Origin: Candidatus Arthromitus sp. SFB-mouse-Japan
Lineage (GTDB): Bacteria > Bacillota > Clostridia > Clostridiales > Clostridiaceae
Direction: 5' to 3'
DNA length: 32,000 nt
NCBI RefSeq assembly: GCF_000270205.1
Contig: NC_015913.1
Span: 90,001-122,000 of the forward strand
Below are positions 19,774 to 32,000 of the stretch, in pieces. Numbering within the stretch: position 1 is the first letter of the stretch; the number at the start of each line of letters is the position of its first letter. A program made the position numbers and the translations under genes. The notes below the pieces were generated by a model. That model worked only from the letters and a program-made list of their open reading frames with translations, had not been told where the DNA came from and searched no databases.

Positions 19774-19807
19774 ACATTAGTATCTTTTGATACTAATGTT
19801 TTTTTTG
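19774..19807 (+). terminator. Rho-independent terminator after pyk
   Basis: ACATTAGTATC (19774-19784), loop TTTT, GATACTAATGT (19789-19799), then a T8 run. It overlaps the N-terminal extension of the next ORF in the ORF track, which argues against that extension. Confidence 0.7.
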
Positions 19808-19831
19808 ATTAAGGAGGAAAATTTTTTAAGT

Positions 19832-21217
19832 ATGGTGGATGTTGCTAATAAGTACATAGTAAAGATTGAGGATTATGATAGTAAGGGAAATGGAGTTTCA
19901 CATATAGACGATTTAGTTGTTTTTGTACCTAATACCATAGTTGGCGAAATTGTTGAGATATGTATAGAAAAGGTAAATAAGAATTTTTTAAGAGGTAGAG
20001 TTAATGAAGTGCTTTCAGTATCTGAATCAAGAGTATTGCCTATATGTGAGATATATGAAAAATGTGGTGGATGTAATATTCAGCACATGAATTATAAGGA
20101 GCAAATTAGATTTAAAGAAAGTAAAATAATAAATACATTAAATAAAATAGGTGATATACGGAATATTAAGATGGAAAAATTCTATGCGATGTCTATTCCA
20201 TATGAGTATAGGAATAAAGTTCAGGTACCATTTGGATTAAGTGATTCTGGTGTTAAAGCTGGATTTTATGAAAAAAATACTCATAATATTATCAATATGG
20301 ACTTCTGTCATATACAGTTTCACGAAGGTAATGATATTGTTAAGGAAACTAGAGAATATATAAAAAAAAATAATATAAAGCCTTATGATGAGAGTGCTAA
20401 TTATAAAAAAGGTTGTGATTATGGTCTTGTAAGACATTTGCTCATTAGAAAGGGATATAATACAAATGAAATCATGCTTGTAATTGTGTTAACTAGAGAT
20501 GACGAGGAATTTTTAAATGGGTATATGGATTTTATATTAGAAAAATTTAAGAATATAAAGACAATAATAGTTAACGTAAATAATGAAATAACAAATGTTA
20601 TTCTTGGAAAATACGAGAGGGTATTGTATGGTGATGGTTATATAAAAGACAAGATAAATGATTTTATATTTAGAATACATAGTAAATCATTTTTTCAGGT
20701 TAATACAAAACAATCTGAGAAGTTATATTCGGCTGCAATTGAAATGTGTGATTTAAAATTTGGAGATATTCTTCTAGATGCTTATTGTGGGATTGGTACC
20801 ATAGGTATATGTGCAAGTAGAAAAATAAAGCAGGTCTATGGTATAGAGGAAGTTAAAGAGAGCATAGTTGATGCTAATGAAAATAAGATTATAAATAATA
20901 TTAAAAATATAGAATTTATACATGGTAAGGTTGAAGATGAAATATTTAATTTAGTAAATAGCGGGGTTAATATAAATGCTGTTATTTTAGATCCTCCAAG
21001 AAAGGGTGTAAAGGAGAGGGTCTTACATAAAATAAGAGATATTAACTGTAGAAAAATAGTTTATATTTCATGTGATGTATCGACTCTCTCTAGAGATGCT
21101 AAGATATTAAATTCCCTTGGCTATAAGATTGATAAAATTAGAGGAGTTGATATGTTTTGTCAAACATATCATGTAGAAACTATTGTTAGATTTACTTTGC
21201 GACCATCTGGATTTTAA
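19832..21217 (+). CDS. 23S rRNA (uracil-5-)-methyltransferase, RlmD/RumA family
   Basis: TRAM-like N-terminus, Fe-S cysteine cluster CEIYEKCGGC, SAM motif LDAYCGIGTIG and catalytic-Cys region VYISCD. The ATG at 19832 is preferred because the TTG at 19787 lies inside the pyk terminator. The start remains uncertain because the SD spacing is long. Confidence 0.85.
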   Translation: MVDVANKYIVKIEDYDSKGNGVSHIDDLVVFVPNTIVGEIVEICIEKVNKNFLRGRVNEVLSVSESRVLPICEIYEKCGGCNIQHMNYKEQIRFKESKIINTLNKIGDIRNIKMEKFYAMSIPYEYRNKVQVPFGLSDSGVKAGFYEKNTHNIINMDFCHIQFHEGNDIVKETREYIKKNNIKPYDESANYKKGCDYGLVRHLLIRKGYNTNEIMLVIVLTRDDEEFLNGYMDFILEKFKNIKTIIVNVNNEITNVILGKYERVLYGDGYIKDKINDFIFRIHSKSFFQVNTKQSEKLYSAAIEMCDLKFGDILLDAYCGIGTIGICASRKIKQVYGIEEVKESIVDANENKIINNIKNIEFIHGKVEDEIFNLVNSGVNINAVILDPPRKGVKERVLHKIRDINCRKIVYISCDVSTLSRDAKILNSLGYKIDKIRGVDMFCQTYHVETIVRFTLRPSGF

Positions 21218-21255
21218 ATATTTGTGAATCAAATTTTATTAGTTTTGACTACCTT

Positions 21256-21284
21256 TTGCCTACATAAAATTAATATGTAGGCAA
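21256..21284. repeat. 11-bp perfect inverted repeat at the chromosome/prophage junction
   Basis: TTGCCTACATA (21256-21266) and TATGTAGGCAA (21274-21284) around a 7-nt loop. The repeat spans the integrase stop codon. Confidence 0.6.
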
Positions 21285-22460
21285 TATTATATTTTCAAAT
21301 ATATCTACTGATTGTTTAGCTAACTTATCTGTATTATGGGTATAAGTATTAAGTGTAGTTTGAATATTATTATGTCCTAGTCTATGTTGTACATCTTTAA
21401 TGTTAGCACCATTTTCAACTAGTAATGTAGCGTGGGTGTGTCTTAATGAGTGGAAATTAAAAGGTATACCTAATTCATAATTAATAACACGCGACGCGTA
21501 TTTAAATGAATCTGGTGTTAATAACATTCCGTTACTTTTTACGCACACCATATTTAATAAATGTTCTTTTAAATTTAGAGAACTTGTTGTGATTTTATCA
21601 TTTATGTTGTATTGTTTTATATAATGTTCTCCGTATTCTAAGCGTTTAATATCAATATATCTTTTATGATACTTTAGTGCGTTTTTCAAGGTATTACCTA
21701 TATTAATTATTCTGCTAGAGGAGGTGGTCTTAGGTTCACCAAAATACCAAGACGTATCCTTTTTATATATTAGTTTGTTAATATTGATTGTGTTATTATC
21801 TAAATCAATGTCATCCCACGTTAAACCCATTGCTTCACCTATGCGACAACCAGTATGATAACCAATCATTAAAGGGATATAGAAAGATGATCTTTCGGGA
21901 AAGCGTTTTATTATAGCGTTAAAATCATCATTAGTTATAATTTTATGTTTATCTGTAGTTTTGGTATTATTATACTTAGGAATTTTAACATATTGCATAG
22001 GGTTATTCTTTAGAAAATTCATAGGATGTACTGAGTAGTTAAGGGAACCACTCAATAAGGATATTATATTATTTAGATGATTTTTTGATATACCAGTTAA
22101 ATATTTGCTATTTATAAAATCTTGTAATTTACCAGGAGTTAAAGAAGTTAATTTTAAAATGCCTAAAGAGGGTTTAATATGTTTATCTATTATTAATCTA
22201 TAAGAGCGTTGAGTATTGTATCTGCAATTTAACAGTACATAAGCATCAAACCATAAATCCATATAATCTGATACTGATATATTTGTTTTTTGAAGTTGTT
22301 CACCATTTTCGTAATCTTCCAAAGCCTTTCTTAAAGCTGCTTCAGCTTCTTTTTTGGTTCTACCTCCAACTCTTTCAATCCTTTTTCTTTTTCCGTCGAC
22401 CCTAGCTGCCTCAAACGAGTAATACCACTTGTCTCCTCGTTTTCTAACACTTCCGGTCAT
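21270..22460 (-). CDS. int: Phage tyrosine integrase
   Basis: 396 aa. Catalytic region GCRIGEAMGLTWDDIDL, HSLRHTHATLL, LGH....T...YTH (R..HxxR..Y). SD GGAGATATAAAA precedes the ATG. Confidence 0.93.
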   Translation of the reverse strand: MTGSVRKRGDKWYYSFEAARVDGKRKRIERVGGRTKKEAEAALRKALEDYENGEQLQKTNISVSDYMDLWFDAYVLLNCRYNTQRSYRLIIDKHIKPSLGILKLTSLTPGKLQDFINSKYLTGISKNHLNNIISLLSGSLNYSVHPMNFLKNNPMQYVKIPKYNNTKTTDKHKIITNDDFNAIIKRFPERSSFYIPLMIGYHTGCRIGEAMGLTWDDIDLDNNTININKLIYKKDTSWYFGEPKTTSSSRIINIGNTLKNALKYHKRYIDIKRLEYGEHYIKQYNINDKITTSSLNLKEHLLNMVCVKSNGMLLTPDSFKYASRVINYELGIPFNFHSLRHTHATLLVENGANIKDVQHRLGHNNIQTTLNTYTHNTDKLAKQSVDIFENIILPTY

Positions 22461-22522
22461 TTTTATATCTCCTTTTTGATTTAATTTTACACGGGATTAT
22501 ATATAAAAGTAAATATAATAGT
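22458..22522. repeat. Integrase start plus upstream region, copy a of a ~65-bp repeat (copy b at 25466-25532)
   Basis: CAT..TTATATCTCC-TTTTTGATTTAATTTTACA..GGAATT/GGGATT..ATAAAAGTAAA.ATAATAGT is shared between the two copies, by eye. Confidence 0.75.
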
Positions 22523-22694
22523 AAATGTGATAGTTTATGCTGCGAATTAATCATAAATAGTTAATTGATGCTTTGTTTAATTTTATAATATTCTGAAAAG
22601 CATATCAATTCCTATTAAATTGTTATAAAATATAACCATAATAATTGAATATATTTAATACTAAAATATTATAATATTAAAGGGTGGTGATCTT

Positions 22695-23999
22695 ATGTTT
22701 ACTGGTATTAAGCTTAAGAATTTTAAATCACTAGTTGATTTTGAAGTTAAATTCCCTAGAAATAGAAAATTAGTTATAATTTATGGAGAAAATGGTGTTG
22801 GAAAATCTAATTTTATAGATGCCTTTAGTATTTTGAGAAAACTAGTTACTGGTAGACCCTTTGATGTAGATGATTTTTTGGAATTGGCAAATCTTAAATT
22901 CAATCACGGTCTTAGTAATATAGACATGGATGCTGAAGTTATTACAGATTTGTTTAAGACATCTAACCTTAAAAGGATTATTGAGTCATGTAAGACTATA
23001 AACTCAGAAGGCGAAAATATGGTATTATCATTTGACTTTACTTTAAGAGGAAAAAAAGGATCGTATATTATAGAAACTGATGATAATAGGCTAATATCTG
23101 AGAGATTAGAATATGTATATAATAAGCAAATTGTTGAATTCTTTAATGTTAATAATGATGAAATTTATTTAAACGAAAAAGTGATAAAAAATAAAGAATA
23201 TTACGAAGAACTGATAAATAATTGTGAAAAGTATTGGGGTAAAAATACTTTGACGTCTATGATATTTAAAGATATACAGTCAAAAAACGATAAGTATATG
23301 TCTAAATCTCTGACTAAGAATATGATAGAGATAATCGATTACTTTAGTAGTTTAAATATTAGTGTCAGTGGTCAAATCTTATTTCCTGGTTTACATTTAG
23401 GTGAAGGAATTACACAGATGTCAAATCAGGCAGAACTAGATAAGAATGAAAAAATTTTGGATGATATATTCACTCGTTTATATCCAGATATAAAACAGGT
23501 GTATTACAAAAAAGAGATAATTGATGATGGTAAAATAAATTATAAGTTGTACTTTAAAAAGCTTGTAGGTAATAAAATTTTAGATATAGATATTGAACGA
23601 GAGTCTAAAGGTACCAAACAAGTATTAAATATAACGAAACAAATTTTATATGGTTTAGATAAACAAGTGTTAATCATCGATGAATTTGATACAGGTATAC
23701 ATGATATATTAGCTAAATCTATGTTGCAGAGTTTATATGATAGTTTAGATATGCAAATAATTATTACTACGCATAATACATTACTCATAGAAGCTAAAGA
23801 CTTATGTAAAAACGCATATGTACTAACGCATAATATTGATGGAAGTAAGGATATGATAGCTATATCTGATTTTGAAAAAAGAATCCATAGTAATTTAAAT
23901 ATTAGAGATAGATATCTAAGAGGAATGTATGGAGGTGTGCCAATCCCGCTCGATATAGATTTTTCTGATTATAGTGATGCTAATTTGGAGGATTGTTAG
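22695..23999 (+). CDS. ABC/AAA_21-type ATPase (COG1106-like; AbiLi / AriA / OLD-ATPase-like), defence candidate
   Basis: Walker A GENGVGKSNF at residues ~31-40, signature-like ESKGTKQVL, Walker B/D-loop VLIIDEFDTGIH, H-loop ITTHN and a C-terminal RDRYLRGMYGGVP tail. SD GGTGGTGA precedes the ATG. Confidence 0.8.
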   Translation: MFTGIKLKNFKSLVDFEVKFPRNRKLVIIYGENGVGKSNFIDAFSILRKLVTGRPFDVDDFLELANLKFNHGLSNIDMDAEVITDLFKTSNLKRIIESCKTINSEGENMVLSFDFTLRGKKGSYIIETDDNRLISERLEYVYNKQIVEFFNVNNDEIYLNEKVIKNKEYYEELINNCEKYWGKNTLTSMIFKDIQSKNDKYMSKSLTKNMIEIIDYFSSLNISVSGQILFPGLHLGEGITQMSNQAELDKNEKILDDIFTRLYPDIKQVYYKKEIIDDGKINYKLYFKKLVGNKILDIDIERESKGTKQVLNITKQILYGLDKQVLIIDEFDTGIHDILAKSMLQSLYDSLDMQIIITTHNTLLIEAKDLCKNAYVLTHNIDGSKDMIAISDFEKRIHSNLNIRDRYLRGMYGGVPIPLDIDFSDYSDANLEDC

Positions 24000-24587
24000 A
24001 TGGGAGGTAAGAAAGCACAAATACAGTATTTACGCTGTATACTAATTTGTCATGGCAAATCAGAAAAAGAATTTATGGAGACTATAAAGCAAAATTTACG
24101 TTTAAAGATACACATAGAGTCAGATAAAAAAGGAAGTAAGTCTATTCAGATAAATAGTCTGAATAAGACTTTGAAAAATCACAAGTATGGTAAACGTGAT
24201 AATTTTTTAAGATATTTTGAGGATATAGAATTAATAAAAGGTAAAATAACATCTGAGTTTAAAATTTTTACGTTATTGGATACGGATGATAAAGAAAAAG
24301 AAATAAACTTGATAAAATATTTGAATAAAGAAATGTTTAAAGAGCATCATCTTTATGATCATATAGTACCTATTTATAATACTCCTAATTTAGAAAGTGT
24401 TTTTGAAGAAATTGGTCATGTATTTAAGAATAAAGGCGAGGCAAGAAAAAGAGAGTATAAAGATTTATTGAAACCATATCCAACCCCTAAACTTGCTCGG
24501 AATTATTTAAAAGATTTATCGGGAAAATTTGAAAAGAGCAAAAACACTAATCTTAATCATGTTATTAATTTTCTCCTTAATATATAA
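24000..24587 (+). CDS. Small Toprim-like partner protein (RloB / DUF4276 / AbiLii-like), defence candidate
   Basis: The ATG abuts the ATPase stop (TAGATG) and is preceded by GGAGG. The N-terminal ILICHGKSEKEF resembles the CEGxxTE strand-turn of RloB-type Toprim proteins. A later LLDTDD resembles the Toprim DxD motif. Family assignment is from memory of motifs, not from a search. Confidence 0.6.
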   Translation: MGGKKAQIQYLRCILICHGKSEKEFMETIKQNLRLKIHIESDKKGSKSIQINSLNKTLKNHKYGKRDNFLRYFEDIELIKGKITSEFKIFTLLDTDDKEKEINLIKYLNKEMFKEHHLYDHIVPIYNTPNLESVFEEIGHVFKNKGEARKREYKDLLKPYPTPKLARNYLKDLSGKFEKSKNTNLNHVINFLLNI

Positions 24588-24602
24588 CCCTTAAATAATT
24601 GC

Positions 24603-24768
24603 GAAATATAAGCTTACATTAAATTTATAAGTGCTTCGCGAAGCTATATTAATACTTGATTGTAGTAGAATACTTGGTATTGCTATTCATAGATGAATTA
24701 TGTAGAATATTAGTGTTCGCAAAAATAGTATGTCTATTTATGATTAGCAGCTGTTTTTAAATTTAACG
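24603..24768 (+). promoter_or_regulatory. CRISPR leader 1 (166 bp) with predicted sigma-70-type promoter
   Basis: Near-identical to 26605-26770 (about 3 substitutions by eye). -35 TTGCTA (24680-24685), 17-nt spacer, -10 TAGAAT (24703-24708). Contains the palindrome GCTTCGCGAAGC at 24633-24644. Confidence 0.6.
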
Positions 24769-24999
24769 GTCGCACCTCACGCAGGTGCGTGGATTGAAAT
24801 GAGGATAAAGGAGTTGGCAATTTACATAGTGCATCGTCGCACCTCACGCAGGTGCGTGGATTGAAATTACGTAGTTCTATAACTTTACCAATTATGTGTA
24901 GTCGCACCTCACGCAGGTGCGTGGATTGAAATATATCTAATATTTTAGCTAACTCTAACTGAGTCAGGTCGCACCTCACGTAGGTGCGTGGATTGAAGG
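24769..24999 (+). CRISPR. Mini-CRISPR array 1: four 32-bp repeats and three spacers (35/33/35 bp); type I-C-like repeat
   Basis: Repeats GTCGCACCTCACGCAGGTGCGTGGATTGAAAT at 24769-24800, 24836-24867, 24901-24932 and 24968-24999. The last repeat is degenerate (C14T, terminal AT>GG). Internal hairpin GCACCT/AGGTGC. The leader lies upstream and the degenerate repeat is distal, which gives + orientation. Confidence 0.93.
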
Positions 25000-25014
25000 T
25001 GCCAGACATATAAT

Positions 25015-25048
25015 AAAACCCCACTTGAAATTAATCAGGTGGGGTTTT
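25015..25048. terminator. Bidirectional hairpin between array 1 and the truncated repressor
   Basis: AAAACCCCAC (25015-25024) pairs with GTGGGGTTTT (25039-25048), with A/T runs on both sides. Confidence 0.6.
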
Positions 25049-25434
25049 AAAATCTCCGTCTAAGTTCTACGACCTTTCCGATTATGTGTATAGGTTTATC
25101 TGCAATGTCATTTTTATCGTAGTACATAGGCTCATATCTAGGATTTAACGACACAAGGCTTATACCGTCCTTGTGTTTTATTATTTTTTTACACGTTGCC
25201 TCGTCACCATTAACGCAGACTATAGCTATGTCTCCAGAGTTAACGTCTTGCTGTTTCCTGACTATTACGACATCTCCAGCATCCATTGTGGGAGACATCG
25301 AATCACCCTTGATTACGAGAGCAAAATACTCTCCTTGAGATGCAAGTTTAGGTGATATCTCTTCCCAACCGATAATTTCTTCAATCGCCGTTATGGGTAT
25401 ACCAGCTATAACAGTACCTAGTATGGGTATTTTA
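25047..25434 (-). pseudogene. 5'-truncated copy of the LexA-like repressor (S24 peptidase domain only)
   Basis: Homologous to 27113-27499. Encodes KIPILGTVIAGIPITAIEE..GDSMSPTMDAGD..HIIGKVVELRRRF but has no HTH domain. The reading frame has no start codon upstream of MSPTMD. Homology stops at ~25434. Confidence 0.8.
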
Positions 25435-25465
25435 ATAGCTTTATTGGATTGATCAGATCTGGAAT

Positions 25466-25532
25466 CATTTATTATATCTCCTTTTTTGATTTAATTTTAC
25501 AAGGAATTAGACATAAAAGTAAAGATAATAGT
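25466..25532. repeat. Copy b of the integrase-start/upstream repeat
   Basis: On the minus strand GGAGATATAATAAATGA matches the int SD plus ATGA (GGAGATATAAAAATGA), and similarity continues upstream. No integrase ORF follows: the ATG opens only a 16-codon frame. Confidence 0.75.
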
Positions 25533-25604
25533 TTTATCTGACAAATTAATGGGCAATATAAGTTTAGAAATTGTAGTATATTTGGGTATACCTTGTTATA
25601 ATTA

Positions 25605-26375
25605 TTGGTGAAGAAGGAGATAATATGGGGGTGTTTAAACATGGAAGAAAAAGAAAAGTTGCTTAAAAAATCTAAAGAAATTTTTAGCTTAGTTAGTTGT
25701 ATGTATTGTTATTATAGTGGTCCTTATAAAATTGAAACTGTTTGTATTTTATTATGTAATGCTTGGGAATTAATGTTGAAAGCTTATATAATCGGTAAGA
25801 AGGGGAAAGAAGGAATAGTATATAAAAATAAACAGAATAAGGGTAGGACTATTGGATTAAATGAATGTATAAGTAAAGTATTTACGAATAAGCATGATAT
25901 ATTACGTAAACATTTGGAGTCTGTAATTAGATATAGGAATTCGGTTGTACATTATACAGTTGATAGTTTTGACTTATCTTTATACTCTAAAATAGAGTAT
26001 TGTATAGTGAATTTTAAAGCGAAAATGTGTGAACTTCACAATGTTAATATGTCCGATATGATAGTTAACCAGGCTAATGAAGAAATCTTAAAAAATGATG
26101 TCGATTTGTATAAGTATAGTAAAAAGAGTTTGTGTAGGGAAATAAATAATGTATTGAAATCTTTGGGGATTGAGTTTAAAATCGATAGTCAATCCTTTGA
26201 ATTGTTTGATAGGGTGTACGGAATTAAAGAAAATAAAGAGTATTGTCTTATAAGTAATGTTAATAACAGGCCATCTTATAGATATTCATCAAGAGTTTTA
26301 AATTTTATCGTAGGATTGATACAAAAAAATCCTAACAATATTAAAGAAGTCTTAAAGAATAAAATAAAAAAATAA
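25605..26375 (+). CDS. HEPN-like (Rx4H motif; DUF3644-like) protein, abortive-infection/toxin candidate
   Basis: The motif NAWELMLKAYII, then ~55 residues, then IRYRNSVVHY (R-N-S-V-V-H = Rx4H) matches my recollection of DUF3644/HEPN proteins. The start is ambiguous: TTG 25605 in the ORF track or ATG 25641. Confidence 0.6.
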   Translation: MVKKEIIWGCLNMEEKEKLLKKSKEIFSLVSCMYCYYSGPYKIETVCILLCNAWELMLKAYIIGKKGKEGIVYKNKQNKGRTIGLNECISKVFTNKHDILRKHLESVIRYRNSVVHYTVDSFDLSLYSKIEYCIVNFKAKMCELHNVNMSDMIVNQANEEILKNDVDLYKYSKKSLCREINNVLKSLGIEFKIDSQSFELFDRVYGIKENKEYCLISNVNNRPSYRYSSRVLNFIVGLIQKNPNNIKEVLKNKIKK

Positions 26376-26604
26376 GCTAACCCCAGGGGCAAAGGAATTC
26401 TTGGTTTAATTTATTAAATTAAACCTACTCCTATTTAGGAACCCAGCCTTATCCATCCCAAGTTAGCTTACATTTATATAATATGTACATATCGTGTATA
26501 TTATTCATATACACTTACATTGTACAATAAATAATTTATAAAATCAATATTTTGTAGGTAAAAATCTGTTTAACTAGGCTTATTTAAGCTGGTTATTTTA
26601 CTCG

Positions 26605-26770
26605 GAAATATAAGCTTACATTAAATTTATAAGTGCTTCGCGAAGCTATATTAATACTTGATTGTAGTAGAATAATTGGTATTGCTATTCATAGATGAAT
26701 TATGTAGAATATTAGTGTTCGCAAAAATGGTGTGTCTATTTATGATTAGCAGCTGTTTTTAAATTTAACG
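26605..26770 (+). promoter_or_regulatory. CRISPR leader 2 (166 bp) with predicted promoter
   Basis: Duplicate of leader 1. -35 TTGCTA (26682-26687), 17-nt spacer, -10 TAGAAT (26705-26710). Palindrome GCTTCGCGAAGC at 26635-26646. Confidence 0.6.
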
Positions 26771-27067
26771 GTCGCACCTCACGCAGGTGCGTGGATTGAA
26801 ATTTATTTGTCCAAATTCTAAGTTGTCAAATATTTTGTCGCACCTCACGCAGGTGCGTGGATTGAAATTAGTAGGCTTGTCCTCCTTACTTTTAAACTCC
26901 CGTCGCACCTCATACAGGTGCGTGGATTGAAATTAAGATTTTTTATTGATGTGTACATAATCACCCCTGTCGCACCTCACGCAGGTGCGTGGATTGAAAT
27001 CTTTATAATGGATTTGCTTTATGAGTTATTTAGATGTCGCACCTCACGCAGGTGCGTGGATTGAAGG
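26771..27067 (+). CRISPR. Mini-CRISPR array 2: five 32-bp repeats and four spacers (34/33/35/35 bp); same repeat family
   Basis: Repeats at 26771-26802, 26837-26868, 26902-26933 (loop variant CATAC), 26969-27000 and 27036-27067 (terminal AT>GG, as in array 1). Confidence 0.93.
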
Positions 27068-27082
27068 TGTCATACATATAAT

Positions 27083-27114
27083 AAAAACCACTTGAAATTA
27101 ATCGAGTGGTTTTT
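27083..27114. terminator. Bidirectional hairpin between array 2 and the repressor gene
   Basis: AAAAACCACT (27083-27092) pairs with AGTGGTTTTT (27105-27114). Confidence 0.6.
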
Positions 27115-27826
27115 AAAATCTCCGTCTAAGTTCTACGACTTTACCAATTATGTGTATAGGTTTGCTTACAATGTCATTTTTATCATAGTACATAGGCTCA
27201 TATCTAGGATTTAACGACACAAGGCTTATACCGTCCTTGTGTTTTATTATTTTTTTACATGTTGCTTCATCACCATTAACGCAAACTATAGCTATGTCTC
27301 CAGAGTTAACGTCTTGCTGTTTCCTGACTATTACGACATCTCCAGCATCCATTGTGGGAGACATGGAGTCTCCTTTAATTTTTAACGCAAAGTACTCTCC
27401 TTGAGATGCAAGTTTAGGTGATATCTCTTCCCATCCGATAATCTCCTCAATCGCCGATATTGGGATACCCGCTATTACGGTGCCTAGTATGGGTATTTTT
27501 ACGCAGGCTTGTACGTTTAGACCAAGACCATTTTTATATGATATTACTTTAGTAGAACTGGTAACTTGTATAGGTTGCTGTGCATTGATAAATTCAATAT
27601 GATCTTGATCATTTAATAGTACGGATTCATCGATTCCTAATGCTTGGGCAATTATTTTAATTTTGGACTGAGGAATATCGTTGATACCAGTCTCTATCTT
27701 ATTTATTGTAGACCTAGCTTTATAACCGCACCTTTTTGCCAATTCATCTTGCGACAATCCACGCATTAGTCTAATACGTTTGATTTTGTCGCCTAGTTTC
27801 TTTTTTTCAATATTATTAGTATCCAT
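27113..27826 (-). CDS. Phage repressor, LexA/CI-like (Xre HTH + S24 peptidase)
   Basis: The N-terminal HTH (LSQDELAKRCGYKARSTINKIETG) is followed by an S24 domain with the GDSM Ser and a downstream Lys (CKKI). It is divergent from a cro-like gene. Confidence 0.92.
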   Translation of the reverse strand: MDTNNIEKKKLGDKIKRIRLMRGLSQDELAKRCGYKARSTINKIETGINDIPQSKIKIIAQALGIDESVLLNDQDHIEFINAQQPIQVTSSTKVISYKNGLGLNVQACVKIPILGTVIAGIPISAIEEIIGWEEISPKLASQGEYFALKIKGDSMSPTMDAGDVVIVRKQQDVNSGDIAIVCVNGDEATCKKIIKHKDGISLVSLNPRYEPMYYDKNDIVSKPIHIIGKVVELRRRF

Positions 27827-27832
27827 GTATAA

Positions 27833-27862
27833 ATTATAGTAAGCAATATGTCAATCAGTCAA
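27833..27862 (-). promoter_or_regulatory. Predicted repressor promoter giving a leaderless or near-leaderless mRNA
   Basis: On the minus strand: TTGACT (27862-27857), 18-nt spacer, TATAAT (27838-27833). The repressor ATG begins 7 nt after the -10 element and there is no SD between them. Confidence 0.45.
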
Positions 27863-27890
27863 TAAAAACAGCCTTTTTAATAAAAAAATG

Positions 27891-27919
27891 TTGACTTTAC
27901 ATAAACAAGGTGGTAAAGT
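27891..27919 (+). promoter_or_regulatory. Predicted rightward early promoter for the cro-like gene
   Basis: TTGACT (27891-27896), 17-nt spacer, TAAAGT (27914-27919). The SD GGAGGTGA precedes the ATG at 27966. Confidence 0.45.
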
Positions 27920-27965
27920 GTGATTGTAGATTAATAATAAACATAATGGACATGGAGGTGAGCAA

Positions 27966-28169
27966 ATGGATAATATAAGGCTAGTGGATTGTATACACAA
28001 ATCAGGATTAAAACACAAATACATTGCAGGTCAACTGTCATTAAGTAAGCAGGGGTGGAGTAATAAAATCAACAACAGGACAGAGTTTAGGCTGTCAGAA
28101 ATTAAAAGATTATGCACATTACTTAACCTTGATAGTAAGCAGAGAGATCATATTTTTTTTGAGGATTAA
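27966..28169 (+). CDS. Cro-like small HTH protein
   Basis: 67 aa, divergent from the repressor. HTH-like segment (HKYIAGQLSLSKQGWSNKINN) and a strong SD. Confidence 0.7.
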   Translation: MDNIRLVDCIHKSGLKHKYIAGQLSLSKQGWSNKINNRTEFRLSEIKRLCTLLNLDSKQRDHIFFED

Positions 28170-28185
28170 GTAGATTTAAAATATA

Positions 28186-28258
28186 CAAAGTAATGATAAA
28201 TAACGATAAGTTACGCTAAGTTACAACTAGTTAAATAATAACGTAAAAATAGATTGAA
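28186..28258. repeat. Intergenic linker cassette, copy 1 (others at 28807-28866 and 30091-30144)
   Basis: TTACGCTAAGTTACAACTAGTTAAATAATAACGTAAAAATAGATTG resembles TTACGCTACGTTACAACTAAGTAAATAATAACATAAAAAGGAGATTG in copy 2. In copy 1 the SD is decayed (ATAGATT versus AGGAGATT) and no gene follows. Confidence 0.7.
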
Positions 28259-28287
28259 AAAAGAAAAAGGCAAGCCAATAACTAAGC

Positions 28288-28503
28288 TTACCTTCTCGTT
28301 GGGTCATCTGATCTACCGACCAAATAATCAATAGATATATTGTAATAATCAGCTAATTTAATCAACGTATCATATTTAGGTTTAGATTTCCCATATTCGA
28401 GATTTTGATATGATCTATCGTTGATTTTAAGATAATTGGCTATATCTAATTGTGTTAGATTATTAGATAATCTTAGGGTTTTTAGTCTATCTTTAAAATC
28501 CAT
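28288..28503 (-). CDS. Xre-family HTH protein (71 aa), leftward member of divergent pair 2
   Basis: MDFKDRLKTLRLSNNLTQLDIANYL..SIDYLVGRSDDPTRR. The GTG start at 28545 in the ORF track overlaps the + strand -35 box, so the ATG at 28503 is preferred. Paralogue of 29554-29772. Confidence 0.8.
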   Translation of the reverse strand: MDFKDRLKTLRLSNNLTQLDIANYLKINDRSYQNLEYGKSKPKYDTLIKLADYYNISIDYLVGRSDDPTRR

Positions 28504-28538
28504 AAAAACATACCTTATTAAAAAATAAATAAAAATAG

Positions 28539-28567
28539 TTGACACGAACTAAACCTCGTGATATAGT
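28539..28567 (+). promoter_or_regulatory. Promoter for the 63-aa HTH gene
   Basis: TTGACA (28539-28544), 17-nt spacer, TATAGT (28562-28567). The inverted repeat ACCTCGT/ACGAGGT (28553-28559 / 28579-28585) brackets the -10 element. Confidence 0.6.
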
Positions 28568-28614
28568 GTATCTTGTAGACGAGGTAAACACCGTATCAAT
28601 TTTAAAGGAGGCGT

Positions 28615-28806
28615 ATGAATAATTTAAAAAAAATTCGAAATAAAGCTGGTCTAACCCAGATGTATTTATCTAGTCTGATAAATATAAACGTGCGTAGCTA
28701 CCAGAGTATAGAGCTCGGTAAAAGTTTACCGAGAGTAGATAGAGCATTAGCAATAGCAAAGATATTAAATACAACTGTGGAAGAACTATTTGGTAAAGAT
28801 AAGTAA
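28615..28806 (+). CDS. Xre-family HTH protein (63 aa), rightward member of pair 2
   Basis: MNNLKKIRNKAGLTQMYLS..AKILNTTVEELFGKDK. SD AAAGGAGG. Paralogue of 29890-30090. Confidence 0.8.
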   Translation: MNNLKKIRNKAGLTQMYLSSLININVRSYQSIELGKSLPRVDRALAIAKILNTTVEELFGKDK

Positions 28807-28866
28807 TGCTAAATTACGCTACGTTACAACTAAGTAAATAATAACATAAAAAGGAGATTGAGACAA
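28807..28866. repeat. Intergenic linker cassette, copy 2
   Basis: Shares ..ATAATAACATAAAAAGGAGATTGAGACAA followed by ATGGCAAATGA with copy 3. The first five codons (MANDI) are shared by the two downstream genes. Confidence 0.7.
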
Positions 28867-28938
28867 ATGGCAAATGACATAAAAGTATTTGAGCATGATG
28901 AATTTGGACAAATAAGAACAGTTTTAATTAATGAATGA
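28867..28938 (+). pseudogene. Detached N-terminal fragment of the antirepressor Bro-N domain (frameshifted)
   Basis: A good SD is followed by ATG and MANDIKVFEHDEFGQIRTVLINE*. The tandem AATGAATG at 28930-28937 shifts the frame. Removing one AATG fuses this fragment in frame to the 28931 ORF (..IRTVLINDQTWFVGKDVARALGY). Confidence 0.65.
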
Positions 28939-29551
28939 CCAAACATGGTTTGTTGGAAAAGATGTAGCTAGGGCTTTAGGATATGCAAATGGAAGCAGAG
29001 ATATAAATAGACATGTTGAGATCGAGGATAAAGTTTTGAGAAAATTACCACAATACCAAAACGGTAGTTTGGTATCAAACACAGTATTAATCAACGAATC
29101 AGGATTGTACAGTTTAATTTTATCAAGCAAATTGCCTAAAGCTAAGAAATTTAAAAGATGGGTGACTAGTGATGTATTACCATCAATACGGAATACAGGG
29201 GCTTATATAGCATCTAACAGACTTGATGAGTTAGATGATAGGGTTAAAAAATTAGAATCTAAAACAGTAATTGGCAAAGCCCAAAAGCCGATTGTGGGGG
29301 TTAACACATCAGAAATAGCATTTAGTTTAGGGATATCGCCTAAAGCTTTATTTGAATTTTTGAGATCGACTGGAGTCGCTAATCGTAAATGGGATAAATA
29401 CGAGTTGCACGATGATTATGTTGGATTTGGTTATATCCAGAATGCAAGAGTAGCTTATGAGAGATGCTACGAAAAAAGAATTAAATTTTGGACGCTTAAA
29501 GGCGTTTGGTTTGTAATGGATTTATATAATAAAAGGCAAGCCAATAACTAA
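28931..29551 (+). CDS. Phage antirepressor (Bro-N + KilAC/ANT domains), 5' part split off by a frameshift
   Basis: WFVGKDVARALGY..INESGLYSLILSSKLPKAKKFKRWVTSDVLPSIR is a Bro-N domain. The C-terminal half is KilAC-like (IAFSLGISPKALFEFLRSTGV..). There is no SD before the ATG at 28931. Confidence 0.75.
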   Translation: MNDQTWFVGKDVARALGYANGSRDINRHVEIEDKVLRKLPQYQNGSLVSNTVLINESGLYSLILSSKLPKAKKFKRWVTSDVLPSIRNTGAYIASNRLDELDDRVKKLESKTVIGKAQKPIVGVNTSEIAFSLGISPKALFEFLRSTGVANRKWDKYELHDDYVGFGYIQNARVAYERCYEKRIKFWTLKGVWFVMDLYNKRQANN

Positions 29552-29553
29552 GC

Positions 29554-29772
29554 TTACCTTCTAGTTGGATTAGTAGTCTCGCCGACTAAATAATCAATAG
29601 ATACATCGAAAAACCTTGCCAAAGCTATTAGTATATCAAAAGTAGGTTTGCGAGCATTCAACTCATAATTTTGTATACCTCTTTCGCTTATCCCTATAGC
29701 TTTAGCTAAATCTTTTTGGGTTATATTATTTTTAAGCCTTAAACCTTTTAAATGATTACCAAAATCAAACAT
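29554..29772 (-). CDS. Xre-family HTH protein (72 aa), leftward member of pair 3
   Basis: MFDFGNHLKGLRLKNNITQKDLAKAIG..SIDYLVGETTNPTRR. The longer ORF in the track (to 29820) runs into the + strand promoter. Confidence 0.8.
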   Translation of the reverse strand: MFDFGNHLKGLRLKNNITQKDLAKAIGISERGIQNYELNARKPTFDILIALARFFDVSIDYLVGETTNPTRR

Positions 29773-29807
29773 TTTACACATCTCGCTAAAAATTTTATTA
29801 AAAATAG

Positions 29808-29836
29808 TTGACACGAACAATTGTTCATGTTAATAT
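29808..29836 (+). promoter_or_regulatory. Promoter for the 66-aa HTH gene, with an embedded palindrome
   Basis: TTGACA (29808-29813), 17-nt spacer, TAATAT (29831-29836). The perfect palindrome GAACAATTGTTC (29815-29826) lies in the spacer. Confidence 0.6.
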
Positions 29837-29889
29837 ATATTTGTAACACGAACAAACGAGTATCAAGTAAGTTGAGAAAGGAGAAAAAA

Positions 29890-30090
29890 TTGCATAATAA
29901 TTTAAAGCCAATCCGTGATAAATTGGGTCTTACCCAAAATCAGGTATCAGATATAGCGGAGATAACTTTGAGAAGCTACCAAAACTATGAATACAGTAAA
30001 CGGATACCTAAAGTAAACATCGCATTAGATATAGCAAAAGCTCTTAACACAACGGTGGAAGAACTATTTAGTAATGATAAATTACAATAA
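29890..30090 (+). CDS. Xre-family HTH protein (66 aa), rightward member of pair 3
   Basis: The TTG start lies 6 nt after AAGGAG. (M)HNNLKPIRDKLGLTQNQVS..AKALNTTVEELFSNDKLQ aligns with the 63-aa paralogue. The start at 29821 in the ORF track lies inside the promoter. Confidence 0.75.
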   Translation: MHNNLKPIRDKLGLTQNQVSDIAEITLRSYQNYEYSKRIPKVNIALDIAKALNTTVEELFSNDKLQ

Positions 30091-30144
30091 ATTACGTTAA
30101 GTAATGATAAGTAACATAATAACACAAAAAGGAGATTAGGACAA
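30091..30144. repeat. Intergenic linker cassette, copy 3
   Basis: AAATTACGTTAAGTAATGATAAGTAACATAATAACACAAAAAGGAGATTAGGACAA precedes ATGGCAAATGAT. Confidence 0.7.
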
Positions 30145-30363
30145 ATGGCAAATGATATTTTATACACTGTACCCGAGGTATCAAAATTGATTAAAACCAA
30201 TCCATCTTATGTTTACACATTAATAAGATTAGGATTACTACCAGCGCTAAAACTTGGGAGTTTAAAAGTAAGGAGGACAAGCCTATTAGATTTTTTAGAG
30301 AGATTTGAAGGCAAGGATTTAACAGATTTGGAACATATAAGAGATTTAGAAACAGGAGTGTAA
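30145..30363 (+). CDS. Excisionase/MerR-type HTH DNA-binding protein (Xis-like)
   Basis: 72 aa. YTVPEVSKLIKTNPSYVYTLIRLGLLPALKLGS.KVRRTSLLDFLE is typical of excisionase-family HTH_17 domains. Confidence 0.65.
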   Translation: MANDILYTVPEVSKLIKTNPSYVYTLIRLGLLPALKLGSLKVRRTSLLDFLERFEGKDLTDLEHIRDLETGV

Positions 30364-30367
30364 AAGT

Positions 30368-30547
30368 ATGATAAGAAAACAAATTGAATCTTTAATTGGA
30401 CAAGTTGATGATAGGACTTATGCCGAGGCTCTGAAAATGACCGAGGCAGATATTAAAGCTAACAGGTTAAGCTTTAATCTGAAAACACAAATAGAAGACT
30501 TTATTTTAATCCTTATTAACTCTATTAAGATAATAAGGAGAAAATAA
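30368..30547 (+). CDS. Hypothetical small protein (59 aa, below the ORF-track cutoff)
   Basis: ATG at 30368 lies 4 nt after the upstream stop, preceded by AGGAG. MIRKQIESLIGQVDDRTYAEALKMTEADIKANRLSFNLKTQIEDFILILINSIKIIRRK*. Confidence 0.35.
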   Translation: MIRKQIESLIGQVDDRTYAEALKMTEADIKANRLSFNLKTQIEDFILILINSIKIIRRK

Positions 30548-30632
30548 AATCTCCAAAAATAAAAAACCAATATGATTGTACCAAATATTTAATAATAAGA
30601 AAAGTTTTTTAACAAATAAAAATGTATGAGGT

Positions 30633-30899
30633 ATGGATCCGTTAACTGATGAGTTGGTAATAGCTTATAGTGTACAACCAAACGATACAGAGGTAAAAAT
30701 AGTCAAACTAAAACTAGAAGAATGGGACAAGGATGAATTAAAAGATATACTTGCGGGGGATTTTGTAACCTTTGAGACGTTAGAGGTAGTCACACCAGAG
30801 GAACTATCAGATGTAGTATCTGATTGGATAAGCTTTAATGATGATCTGACAGATGATGAGTTTATAGATTCTTGTGTAAAAAATATAACTAAACAGTAA
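30633..30899 (+). CDS. Hypothetical acidic phage protein
   Basis: 88-aa ORF, strongly acidic, co-oriented with the early operon. No motif recognised. Confidence 0.55.
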   Translation: MDPLTDELVIAYSVQPNDTEVKIVKLKLEEWDKDELKDILAGDFVTFETLEVVTPEELSDVVSDWISFNDDLTDDEFIDSCVKNITKQ

Positions 30900-30915
30900 T
30901 GGAGGACTGAAATTT

Positions 30916-31215
30916 ATGATATTAACTTTTAAGCTAGATTCTAATGATACTAACGGGATTAAAAAATTAATAACTTTATGTGAAAATTTACTAAGTTTTG
31001 AAGAAACAGCTACCCCGGAACTTGAATTTGTTAGGGAAGAACCTAAAACAGATATTAAAATTGATGACTTGAGGAATGCATTAATAAAGTTAGCAAAGGA
31101 TAAAGGGAAAGAAACTGCCAAAGAATTACTAAATGAATTTAAGGTTGAAAAACTTACAGATGTAAATACATCTGACTATGATAGATTATTACAGCGTATA
31201 CGTGAGGTGCAATAA
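30916..31215 (+). CDS. Hypothetical phage protein
   Basis: 99-aa ORF preceded by GGAGGA. Its stop overlaps the next start (TAATG). Confidence 0.55.
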   Translation: MILTFKLDSNDTNGIKKLITLCENLLSFEETATPELEFVREEPKTDIKIDDLRNALIKLAKDKGKETAKELLNEFKVEKLTDVNTSDYDRLLQRIREVQ

Positions 31216-32000
31216 TGTTACATGCTAAATTATCAGCAAGTGGTGCTAAAAAGTGGATTAATTGTCCTTTATCAGTAGTGCTGGAAAGTAAGATGCCGAA
31301 TGAAGAAACACCATATGCAAAAGAAGGAACTTTAGCCCACGAATTAAGTGAATTAAAGCTTAGAAGGGAATTAAATCTAATAGGTAAAGAGGCTTATGAT
31401 ACCGAAGTTAGTAAACTTGATTATGATGATGAGATGGACAAGTATACAGATTATTACTGTGATGTAGTGATGGAGATTGTAAATAAATATGATCGCAATT
31501 ATAGCACGGTCAGACTAGAGGAAAAGGTCGATTTTAGTCCATGGGTGCCAGAGGGATTTGGGACATCTGATGTAATCATTATATCGGATAACACCGCGGA
31601 AGTAGTTGATCTCAAATATGGTAAAGGTGTTAAAGTATCTGCAGATAACAACCCTCAATTAATGCTCTATGCACTAGGTGTATTAAACGATTACAATTAT
31701 ATTTGTGATATTAAAGAGGTTAATTTAACAATTGTACAACCTAGGCTGGATAGTATATCTAGTTTTAAGATAAATGTTTATGATCTGCTTGAGTGGGGCG
31801 AGACTATAAGAGTTAAAGCATTAAAAGCTTTTAATGGTGAAGGAGATTGTGTAGTAGGTAAGCATTGCGATGATGGATTTTGTAGAGCTCGCCCTATCTG
31901 TAAAGCCTACGCTGATGAGAGACTAAAGATAGCCAAATATGATTTTAAAGATCCAGCGGAATTAAGTGCTGATGATATAGCAGATATCCTCGGGACTGTA
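31215..32000 (+). CDS. DUF2800-like PD-(D/E)XK nuclease (Cas4-like, Cys cluster); 3' end lies outside the window
   Basis: Not in the ORF track because no stop falls within the window. Open for 262 codons: MLHAKLSASGAKKWINCP.., nuclease motif SDVIII..VVDLKYGKG, and C-terminal cysteines CVVGKHCDDGFCRARPIC. Confidence 0.75.
   Translation, partial: MLHAKLSASGAKKWINCPLSVVLESKMPNEETPYAKEGTLAHELSELKLRRELNLIGKEAYDTEVSKLDYDDEMDKYTDYYCDVVMEIVNKYDRNYSTVRLEEKVDFSPWVPEGFGTSDVIIISDNTAEVVDLKYGKGVKVSADNNPQLMLYALGVLNDYNYICDIKEVNLTIVQPRLDSISSFKINVYDLLEWGETIRVKALKAFNGEGDCVVGKHCDDGFCRARPICKAYADERLKIAKYDFKDPAELSADDIADILGTV

Follow-up and report, generated by a model that had tools for sequence, protein, structure and literature searches.

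Cas-less mini-CRISPR arrays with type I-C repeats on a prophage of segmented filamentous bacteria, and their spacer matches in sibling prophages

CRISPR arrays without cas genes have been described on several viruses. The portogloboviruses of Sulfolobales carry leader-bearing cas-less mini-arrays, in which close relatives hold spacers against each other and which have been interpreted as excluding heterotypic superinfection via the host Cas proteins (Medvedeva et al. 2019, PMC6858448). In prophages of Clostridium difficile, cas-less arrays with the repeats of the host system hold spacers that match other phages infecting this host, and variants that would escape, altered in the protospacer or its protospacer-adjacent motif (PAM), have been seen (Hargreaves et al. 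2014, PMC4173771; Boudry et al. 2015, PMC4556805). Among segmented filamentous bacteria (SFB), strain SFB-mouse-Yit has three CRISPR loci: CRISPR3, of 13 units, follows six cas genes, and the cas-less CRISPR1 and CRISPR2, of three and four units, lie on the prophage SFBMP01 (Kuwahara et al. 2011, DNA Res, PMC3158464). The same authors reported a 160-bp leader and a 32-bp repeat common to the SFBMP01 arrays and CRISPR3, and proposed, citing the C. difficile precedent, that the CRISPR3 Cas proteins mature the prophage transcripts; no spacer homology was reported and the subtype was not named (PMC3158464). SFB-turkey has one CRISPR and seven Cas proteins (PMC9482736). Here we describe two cas-less arrays in a stretch of 32,000 nucleotides from Candidatus Arthromitus sp. 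SFB-mouse-Japan (contig NC_015913.1), hereafter the window, to which all coordinates refer.

The two arrays are almost certainly CRISPR1 and CRISPR2 of SFBMP01, since a count of 3 + 4 spacers fits the window and not the 6 + 4 or 0 + 4 copies of related prophages. Since both the arrays and their interpretation appeared in print in 2011, the finding as such is already known. Two things are added to the 2011 description: sibling SFB prophages contain matches, reciprocal and with a TTC PAM, to four of the seven spacers, and the repeat is tied to type I-C. Compared with the archaeal mini-arrays, which are of type I and hold one or two spacers, those of SFB belong to a bacterial temperate phage, have type I-C repeats, hold 0 to 10 spacers per array, occur as two arrays per genome, are physically coupled to a repressor gene and have their targets concentrated in the immunity region. 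They resemble the prophage arrays of C. difficile, another gut Firmicute, in lacking cas genes, in using host-system repeats and in matching phages of the same host, but differ from them in being type I-C-like and in adjoining a repressor. The C. difficile CRISPR is of type I-B, with repeats and PAM unlike those of SFB.

Array anatomy and repeat type

The 32-nt repeat GTCGCACCTCACGCAGGTGCGTGGATTGAAAT is present in nine plus-strand copies in the window, where shuffled sequences lead one to expect 0 matches. The copies start at 24769, 24836, 24901 and 24968 in array 1 and at 26771, 26837, 26902, 26969 and 27036 in array 2 (Table 1), giving a repeat-to-repeat period of 65-67 bp and spacers of 33-35 nt, none of which is common to both arrays. 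The terminal repeat ends in GAAGG in both arrays, and in GAAGG or GAAGT once the siblings are included. The two other variant positions, seen in the internal repeat that starts at 26902 and in the terminal repeat of array 1 (24968), are confined to the hairpin loop and thus leave the stem intact. The leaders of the two arrays are 98% identical, and when seven copies of the leader, belonging to four prophage variants, are aligned, conservation is 93-100%, with homology starting sharply at 24603 and 26605; the flanks upstream of the seven copies fall into two unrelated classes. The hexamers TTGCTA-17-TAGAAT are conserved and present in both leaders. Regular near-identical direct repeats, unique spacers, an AT-rich conserved leader and a degenerate terminal repeat together identify both loci as CRISPR arrays.

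Both trailers fold into strong hairpins, and that of array 1 is likely a bidirectional terminator. A minus-strand Rfam match to NsiR1 at the array 1 trailer, weak, terminator-like and below the gathering score, was dismissed as being this hairpin. The duplication runs past the arrays: 25042-25341 and 27108-27407, in the 3' part of a minus-strand S24 peptidase/repressor gene, are 92% identical. An earlier note, made from the letters of this DNA, had described two arrays of a 32-bp repeat with three and four unshared spacers, a shared 166-bp leader, the same degenerate terminal repeat and a similar trailer with hairpin, and these features are all found, with each of the nine repeats in its place. 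The arrays were also called paralogous there; the duplication is real, while its extent was understated, as the duplicated stretch reaches the 3' part of the S24 gene.

In its minimum free energy fold, the repeat pairs positions 3-9 with 15-21 as a 7-bp stem around a 5-nt loop; an 11-nt tail follows, and the stem is kept in the variants. Such a stem, loop and tail are the architecture of type I-C CRISPR RNA (crRNA). In a scan of species-representative genomes, the exact 32-mer makes long arrays in unrelated Firmicutes. In a Lactobacillus johnsonii-like metagenome-assembled genome (MAG) from mouse gut (L002), it follows cas2 beside Cas5c, Cas8c, Cas7/Csd2, Cas4 and Cas1c, the last scoring 441.9 bits against a cutoff of 385; in Paenibacillus (L003), an array of the identical 32-mer adjoins Cas3 and Cas5d. 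In type I-C, Cas5 takes the place of Cas6 and the functional PAM is TTC (PMC7049708). The canonical type I-C (Dvulg) systems, for example that of Bacillus halodurans, have the same repeat frame GTCGC-hairpin-GTGGATTGAAAT, a TTC PAM and processing by Cas5 (PMC7049708). Location beside type I-C cas operons, the stem-loop with its 11-nt tail, and 5'-TTC at protospacers (see below) all place the repeat in type I-C, as the earlier note had suggested. No match to the Rfam CRISPR-DR families was obtained at E<=1 in 21000-32000, a weak negative because the coverage of repeat families in Rfam is limited.

Type I-C loci of the L. johnsonii-like genome, of Paenibacillus sp. YIM B09110 and of a Halanaerobiales MAG (L001-L005) carry the 32-mer with 100% identity, an unusually strong conservation of the repeat over distant Firmicutes. 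Despite identical repeats, the Cas1 of L002 has just 56% identity to Cas1c of Paenibacillus sp. YYML68.

Whereas canonical type I-C loci have cas3-cas5-cas8c-cas7-cas4-cas1-cas2 beside the array, the SFB arrays are orphans on a phage. No Cas domain was detected in the sizeable ORFs (open reading frames) of the window, in agreement with the earlier statement that no cas gene lies within these 32 kb, nor in the called genes of the sibling prophages. For the host, the six cas genes of CRISPR3 and the leader and repeat that this locus has in common with the prophage arrays are taken from the literature (PMC3158464). The predicted dependence on a host type I-C Cas complex rests on this source, and the presumed compatibility with the host on the 2011 paper and the TTC signature. 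Scanning species-representative genomes for the exact repeat brought up other Firmicutes and no SFB, and a scan of JGI metagenomes for the leader-repeat junction gave 0 matches. Searching with the Cas1c of the L. johnsonii-like locus yielded thousands of type I-C Cas1 matches, of which none among the best 120 was attributable to SFB. The mouse-gut MAG L002 itself was rejected as the SFB cas locus: its Cas1 is 98% identical to that of L. johnsonii and its leader is different.

Spacer targets and array turnover in sibling prophages

Sibling prophages were gathered via homologues of the repressor that adjoins array 2. The same prophage family is found at the same junction in CP008713.1 (L015, SFB-mouse-NL, hereafter NL) and in AP012209.1 (L022, labelled SFB-mouse-Japan; GCA_000284435.1), the PFK protein of the latter being identical to that of the window; these two genomes identify the host as a mouse SFB. 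Four of the seven window spacers map to lysogeny genes of sibling prophages. A1S2 (spacers are named by array and order, see Table 1) matches the repressor gene of the heteroimmune siblings L017/L018 at 33/33 positions and the NL copy at 32/33, both with TTC, and A2S4 matches the repressor-cro intergenic region of L022 at 34/35, again with TTC. A1S2, A2S1 and A2S2 also have counterparts within the window, each reached by 0 of 500 shuffled spacers. The sequence HIIGKVIELR is encoded by A1S2 and HIIGKVVELR by the resident repressor gene; likewise, A2S1 encodes KIFDNLEFGQ and the resident antirepressor gene (ant) KVFEHDEFGQ. These differences preserve the reading frame, as expected for spacers taken from homologous genes of relatives. 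A2S4 was in addition matched at 32/35, with TTC, in the phage L021.

The matches are reciprocal. Spacers 5 and 3 of L017 have protospacers in the window repressor gene and in the neighbouring 85-aa HTH gene, respectively, and spacers of the Japan-labelled and NL prophages match L017/L018 at 33/33 to 34/35, so that closely related viruses are matched by each other's spacers. In the ten best spacer-target pairs (<=2 mismatches), the PAM is TTC in seven, TTT in two and ATC in one, at a TTC background of 1.5% (binomial P=2e-11). Most targets lie within the hypervariable lysogeny module, the one part in which siblings diverge enough to be matched without self-targeting. A2S2 forms an exception, for its site is identical in all siblings examined (32/33, mismatch at position 3, ATC flank); this invariant site reads as a fixed escape allele, with a regulatory role as an alternative of low probability.

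Among 50,697 isolate phages, BLASTN with the region brought up no relative; the sole matches were to part of the DUF3644 gene in a Listeria phage and, short and due to chance, to Staphylococcus phages. The earlier note had suggested comparing all seven spacers with phage databases: the isolate phages gave only a weak match of A2S1 to a C. difficile phage antirepressor (28/31, E=0.1), no more than a hint of an origin in ant, and it was the sibling prophages that matched four of the seven. The 27-nt core of A1S2 had no match among the viral contigs scanned, and no published targets for spacers of SFB prophages were found in the searchable literature.

At the same position and behind the same near-identical leader, sibling arrays hold 0, 3, 4, 6 or 10 spacers. 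Per prophage there are 3 + 4 in the window, 6 + 4 in the Japan-labelled L022 and 0 + 4 in NL, and the L017 array has 10; across the whole set, the 63 spacers comprise 33 unique ones. The 10-spacer array of L017 has window spacer A2S3 at its leader-proximal end, and L017 and L018 have the trailer-proximal spacer in common. Such turnover among prophages that are otherwise 91-99% identical suggests ongoing acquisition and recombination. In addition, the left part of the window prophage (22393-25477) is L018-like (96% identity) and the part with the DUF3644 gene, leader and array (25465-27065) is L017-like (94%). Judged from these identities, the tandem layout of the window looks like two cassettes fused at about 25465-25477, a fusion that would account for the stump of a P0127-type repressor beside array 1: read backwards, the frame of the S24 remnant there stays open up to DIINDSRSDQSNKAIKIPILG, which corresponds to the linker in the heteroimmune P0127-type repressor.

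Several irregular arrays were observed as well. At the array-1 position, the NL prophage (L015 10702-10733) has a solo repeat ending in GAAGT, without a leader and with a different trailer hairpin; either an array has collapsed here or the repeat stands alone. In the NL array, the first spacer (L006 1446-1479/L015) has at its end a duplication of 10 nt of the repeat, GTCGCACCTC, and its initial 24 nt are the end of spacer 4 in array 2 of L022, a pattern that an aberrant deletion or a recombination within the array seems to have left behind. A distant relative, L021 (2029-2125; Logan SRR33454233), has a 2-repeat array of diverged repeats (GTCGCACCTTACGCAAGTGCG...) beside a homologous repressor, without the shared leader.

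Proposed role in phage exclusion

We consider it rather probable that these are functional cas-less arrays of the temperate SFB phage SFBMP01, by which rival phages are excluded via the host type I-C Cas proteins in trans. In the lysogen, each array would be transcribed from its own leader, and host Cas5c would cut the precursor at the base of the 7-bp hairpin, leaving crRNAs with an 11-nt 5' handle (UGGAUUGAAAU). With these, host Cascade and Cas3 would destroy incoming DNA that carries a matching protospacer beside TTC. Within heteroimmune siblings that share the attachment site, the spacers would be aimed at the region of lysogeny control, with its genes for the repressor, the antirepressor, the Xis-like protein and small HTH proteins, and CRISPR exclusion would thereby be added against those relatives that the resident repressor cannot silence. 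New spacers may be inserted into the prophage arrays by host Cas1-Cas2-Cas4, because these arrays bear the leader of the chromosomal array. The earlier note had viewed the arrays as a phage weapon against competitors, and the TTC-flanked matches in sibling prophages back this view.

Some observations weigh against such a role. The subtype of the SFB cas genes and the sharing of the leader come from the 2011 paper, in which no subtype is named. Two spacers of siblings carry TTT, not TTC, PAMs, and A1S1, A1S3 and A2S3 had no target in isolate phages, in viral contigs (searched with the first 24 nt) or in siblings. The near-match of A2S2 to the resident prophage (32/33) would be hazardous if an ATC flank together with a mismatch in the seed were tolerated. 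As the sibling phages are from separate samples, their co-occurrence is an assumption. Finally, promoter-like sites in this AT-rich stretch are not clearly enriched (24 versus 14.6 +/- 3.8 expected), so that a leader promoter is plausible and not demonstrated. As a strong feature it was dropped, since such hexamers are common in the window; of the good promoter described earlier, the presence and conservation of the hexamers stand, and a clear excess over chance does not.

The missing targets, together with the lone repeat left at the array-1 position in NL and the degraded state of the adjacent ant gene and of one repressor copy, might be taken to mean that the arrays are an inert relic, in which the CRISPR3 leader and a few units were captured by phage recombination and are passively carried. 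The leader and repeat, reportedly the same as in chromosomal CRISPR3 (PMC3158464), would suit that origin. A dead array, however, should have neither perfect or near-perfect TTC-flanked targets in the immunity genes of siblings nor a spacer content that turns over between prophages otherwise 91-99% identical, and the 93-100% conservation of the leader over seven copies with differing flanks, as well as the limitation of repeat variants to loop bases, also speaks against it. We therefore regard a relic as unlikely.

The constancy of the A2S2 site in every sibling examined, and its position within an early gene, could alternatively reflect self-regulation, in which the A2S2 crRNA guides Cascade binding without Cas3 cleavage and damps the Xis-like excision gene in the lysogen. 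Seed mismatches combined with a non-consensus PAM normally abolish binding by type I Cascade, which counts against this idea. Moreover, A2S2 is carried by window-type arrays only and thus is no general regulator of the prophage family, and an escape scar fixed in the surviving lineage is the simpler account; we judge self-regulation very unlikely. That the phage crRNAs are harmless decoys, occupying host Cascade and diluting the phage-targeting chromosomal crRNAs in an anti-defence role, is the most improbable proposal, for although prophage and host arrays have a common leader (PMC3158464) and the arrays are located in the lysogeny region expressed in lysogens, four of seven spacers map to sibling phages, the best matches with the correct PAM, and so are no harmless filler, few units would dilute the 13-unit host array only modestly, and there is no sign that CRISPR3 targets SFBMP01.

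If the arrays do act in excluding rival phages, their arrangement may have a further meaning, which we put forward tentatively and with reservations. The leader, array and terminator with the convergent repressor might form a portable cassette of two-layer immunity, in which homoimmune phages would be met by the repressor and heteroimmune phages by the crRNAs. Within a single temperate phage, variants would compete for the same attachment site and aim at each other's repressor and immunity genes, and this reciprocal CRISPR warfare could drive the mosaicism of the lysogeny region. The invariant A2S2 site in the Xis-like gene would then be a fixed escape scar or, less likely, a site for a self-regulatory crRNA.

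Prophage context and significance

The window begins with chromosomal housekeeping genes (1-21217: uvrA, ftsW, PBP, uvrC, murB, rapZ, whiA, asnB, dnaE, pfk, pyk and a U5-methyltransferase gene), and the prophage follows in the order integrase, AbiLi-like pair, array 1, S24 remnant, DUF3644 gene, array 2, repressor, and small HTH genes with ant and the Xis-like gene. The junction of integrase and methyltransferase recurs in L015, L017 and L022. Integrase, CI-like repressor, ant and Xis-like genes in the window, genes for DNA polymerase A, a VapE-like primase and terminase in L022, and genes for tail fibre, holin and amidase in L016 identify the element as a viral genome, and the arrays do lie inside a prophage between cargo and repressor, as first supposed. 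A 45-kb IMG/VR provirus points the same way. Nor are arrays in the type I-C frame a rarity among viral contigs: 42 contigs of IMG/VR have >=2 units, and among the other 41 such contigs 16 have <=6 repeats, internally placed.

Table 1. Features of the prophage region and of its arrays (coordinates in the window).
Feature	Coordinates	Strand	Remarks
Integrase gene, left prophage end	21270..22460	-	Beside tRNA/rRNA U5-methyltransferase-like gene; Pfam
AbiLi-like AAA_21 ATPase (22695-23999) and 195-aa partner (24000-24587)	22695..24587	+	Pfam; PADLOC AbiLi 1.3e-40
Leader of array 1	24603..24768	+	166 bp; TTGCTA-17-TAGAAT at 24680-24708
Mini-CRISPR array 1	24769..24999	+	4 repeats, 3 spacers; terminal repeat degenerate (..GAAGG)
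Spacers of array 1	A1S1 24801-24835; A1S2 24868-24900; A1S3 24933-24967
Trailer hairpin of array 1	25014..25049	.	15-bp stem, -22.8 kcal/mol, z -5.48; convergent S24 remnant beyond
S24 peptidase remnant	25047..25478	-	C-terminal part of P0127-type repressor; no HTH domain; Pfam Peptidase_S24 1.9e-29
DUF3644 + EC042_2821 restriction-endonuclease-like cargo gene	25605..26375	+	Between arrays; PADLOC candidate PDC-S19, 5.6e-54
Leader of array 2	26605..26770	+	Alignment with array 1 leader
Mini-CRISPR array 2	26771..27067	+	5 repeats, 4 spacers
Spacers of array 2	A2S1 26803-26836; A2S2 26869-26901; A2S3 26934-26968; A2S4 27001-27035
Trailer hairpin of array 2	27082..27115	.	-17.1 kcal/mol, z -5.75; convergent repressor gene beyond
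CI/LexA-like prophage repressor	27113..27826	-	HTH_3 + Peptidase_S24; convergent with array 2; Pfam, homologues found
Diverged self-counterpart of A1S2	27124..27156	+	27/33, flank TCC; 3' end of resident repressor gene
Protospacer of L017 spacer 5	27596..27630	+	35/35, TTC; repressor gene
85-aa HTH gene	28288-28545	-
Protospacer of L017 spacer 3	28391..28424	+	32/34, TTC; 85-aa HTH gene
Diverged self-counterpart of A2S1	28882..28915	-	27/34, flank TTC; 5' end of frameshifted ant (Bro-N)
HTH_17 Xis-like gene	30145-30363
Near-self target of A2S2	30256..30288	-	32/33, mismatch at spacer position 3, flank ATC; HTH_17 Xis-like gene

Among the neighbouring genes, the AbiLi-like ATPase and its partner, for which no family match was found, are probably an AbiL-like abortive-infection pair; the pair is also present in L018 and L022, and in a diverged version in L016. 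Conservation of the DUF3644/EC042_2821 gene extends over sibling prophages and to a Listeria phage, where DNA identity is 74%. In the Bro-N/ANT antirepressor gene at 28867-29551, a frameshift separates an N-terminal ORF of 26 aa (28858/28867-28938) from one of 206 aa (28931-29551), the cause being either decay to a pseudogene or a sequencing error; the antirepressor of L017 is intact at 226 aa, with 96.7% DNA identity to the window. In positions 1-985 of L022 (AP012209.1), next to the integrase, the U5-methyltransferase is called as 180 aa + 259 aa where the window has a single 476-aa ORF (19787-21217), and this split at the attachment-site gene is possibly a frameshift or a strain difference.

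The concept of virus-borne mini-arrays in interviral conflict was established in 2014-2019, and the SFB arrays themselves are nothing new. The value added here is modest: public assemblies make the spacers readable, and they lead to the immunity regions of siblings, reciprocally and with the type I-C PAM. With this reciprocal targeting of siblings, SFB provide a natural counterpart, among bacteria, of the archaeal case. They are important, nearly unculturable, host-restricted immunomodulatory symbionts; most differences between their strains are in prophages and CRISPR, and CRISPR arrays are among the most variable features across SFB-mouse genomes (Pamp 2012, PMC3371716). The prophage arrays may thus be suggested as strain markers, and they are relevant to the engineering or phage-targeting of SFB.

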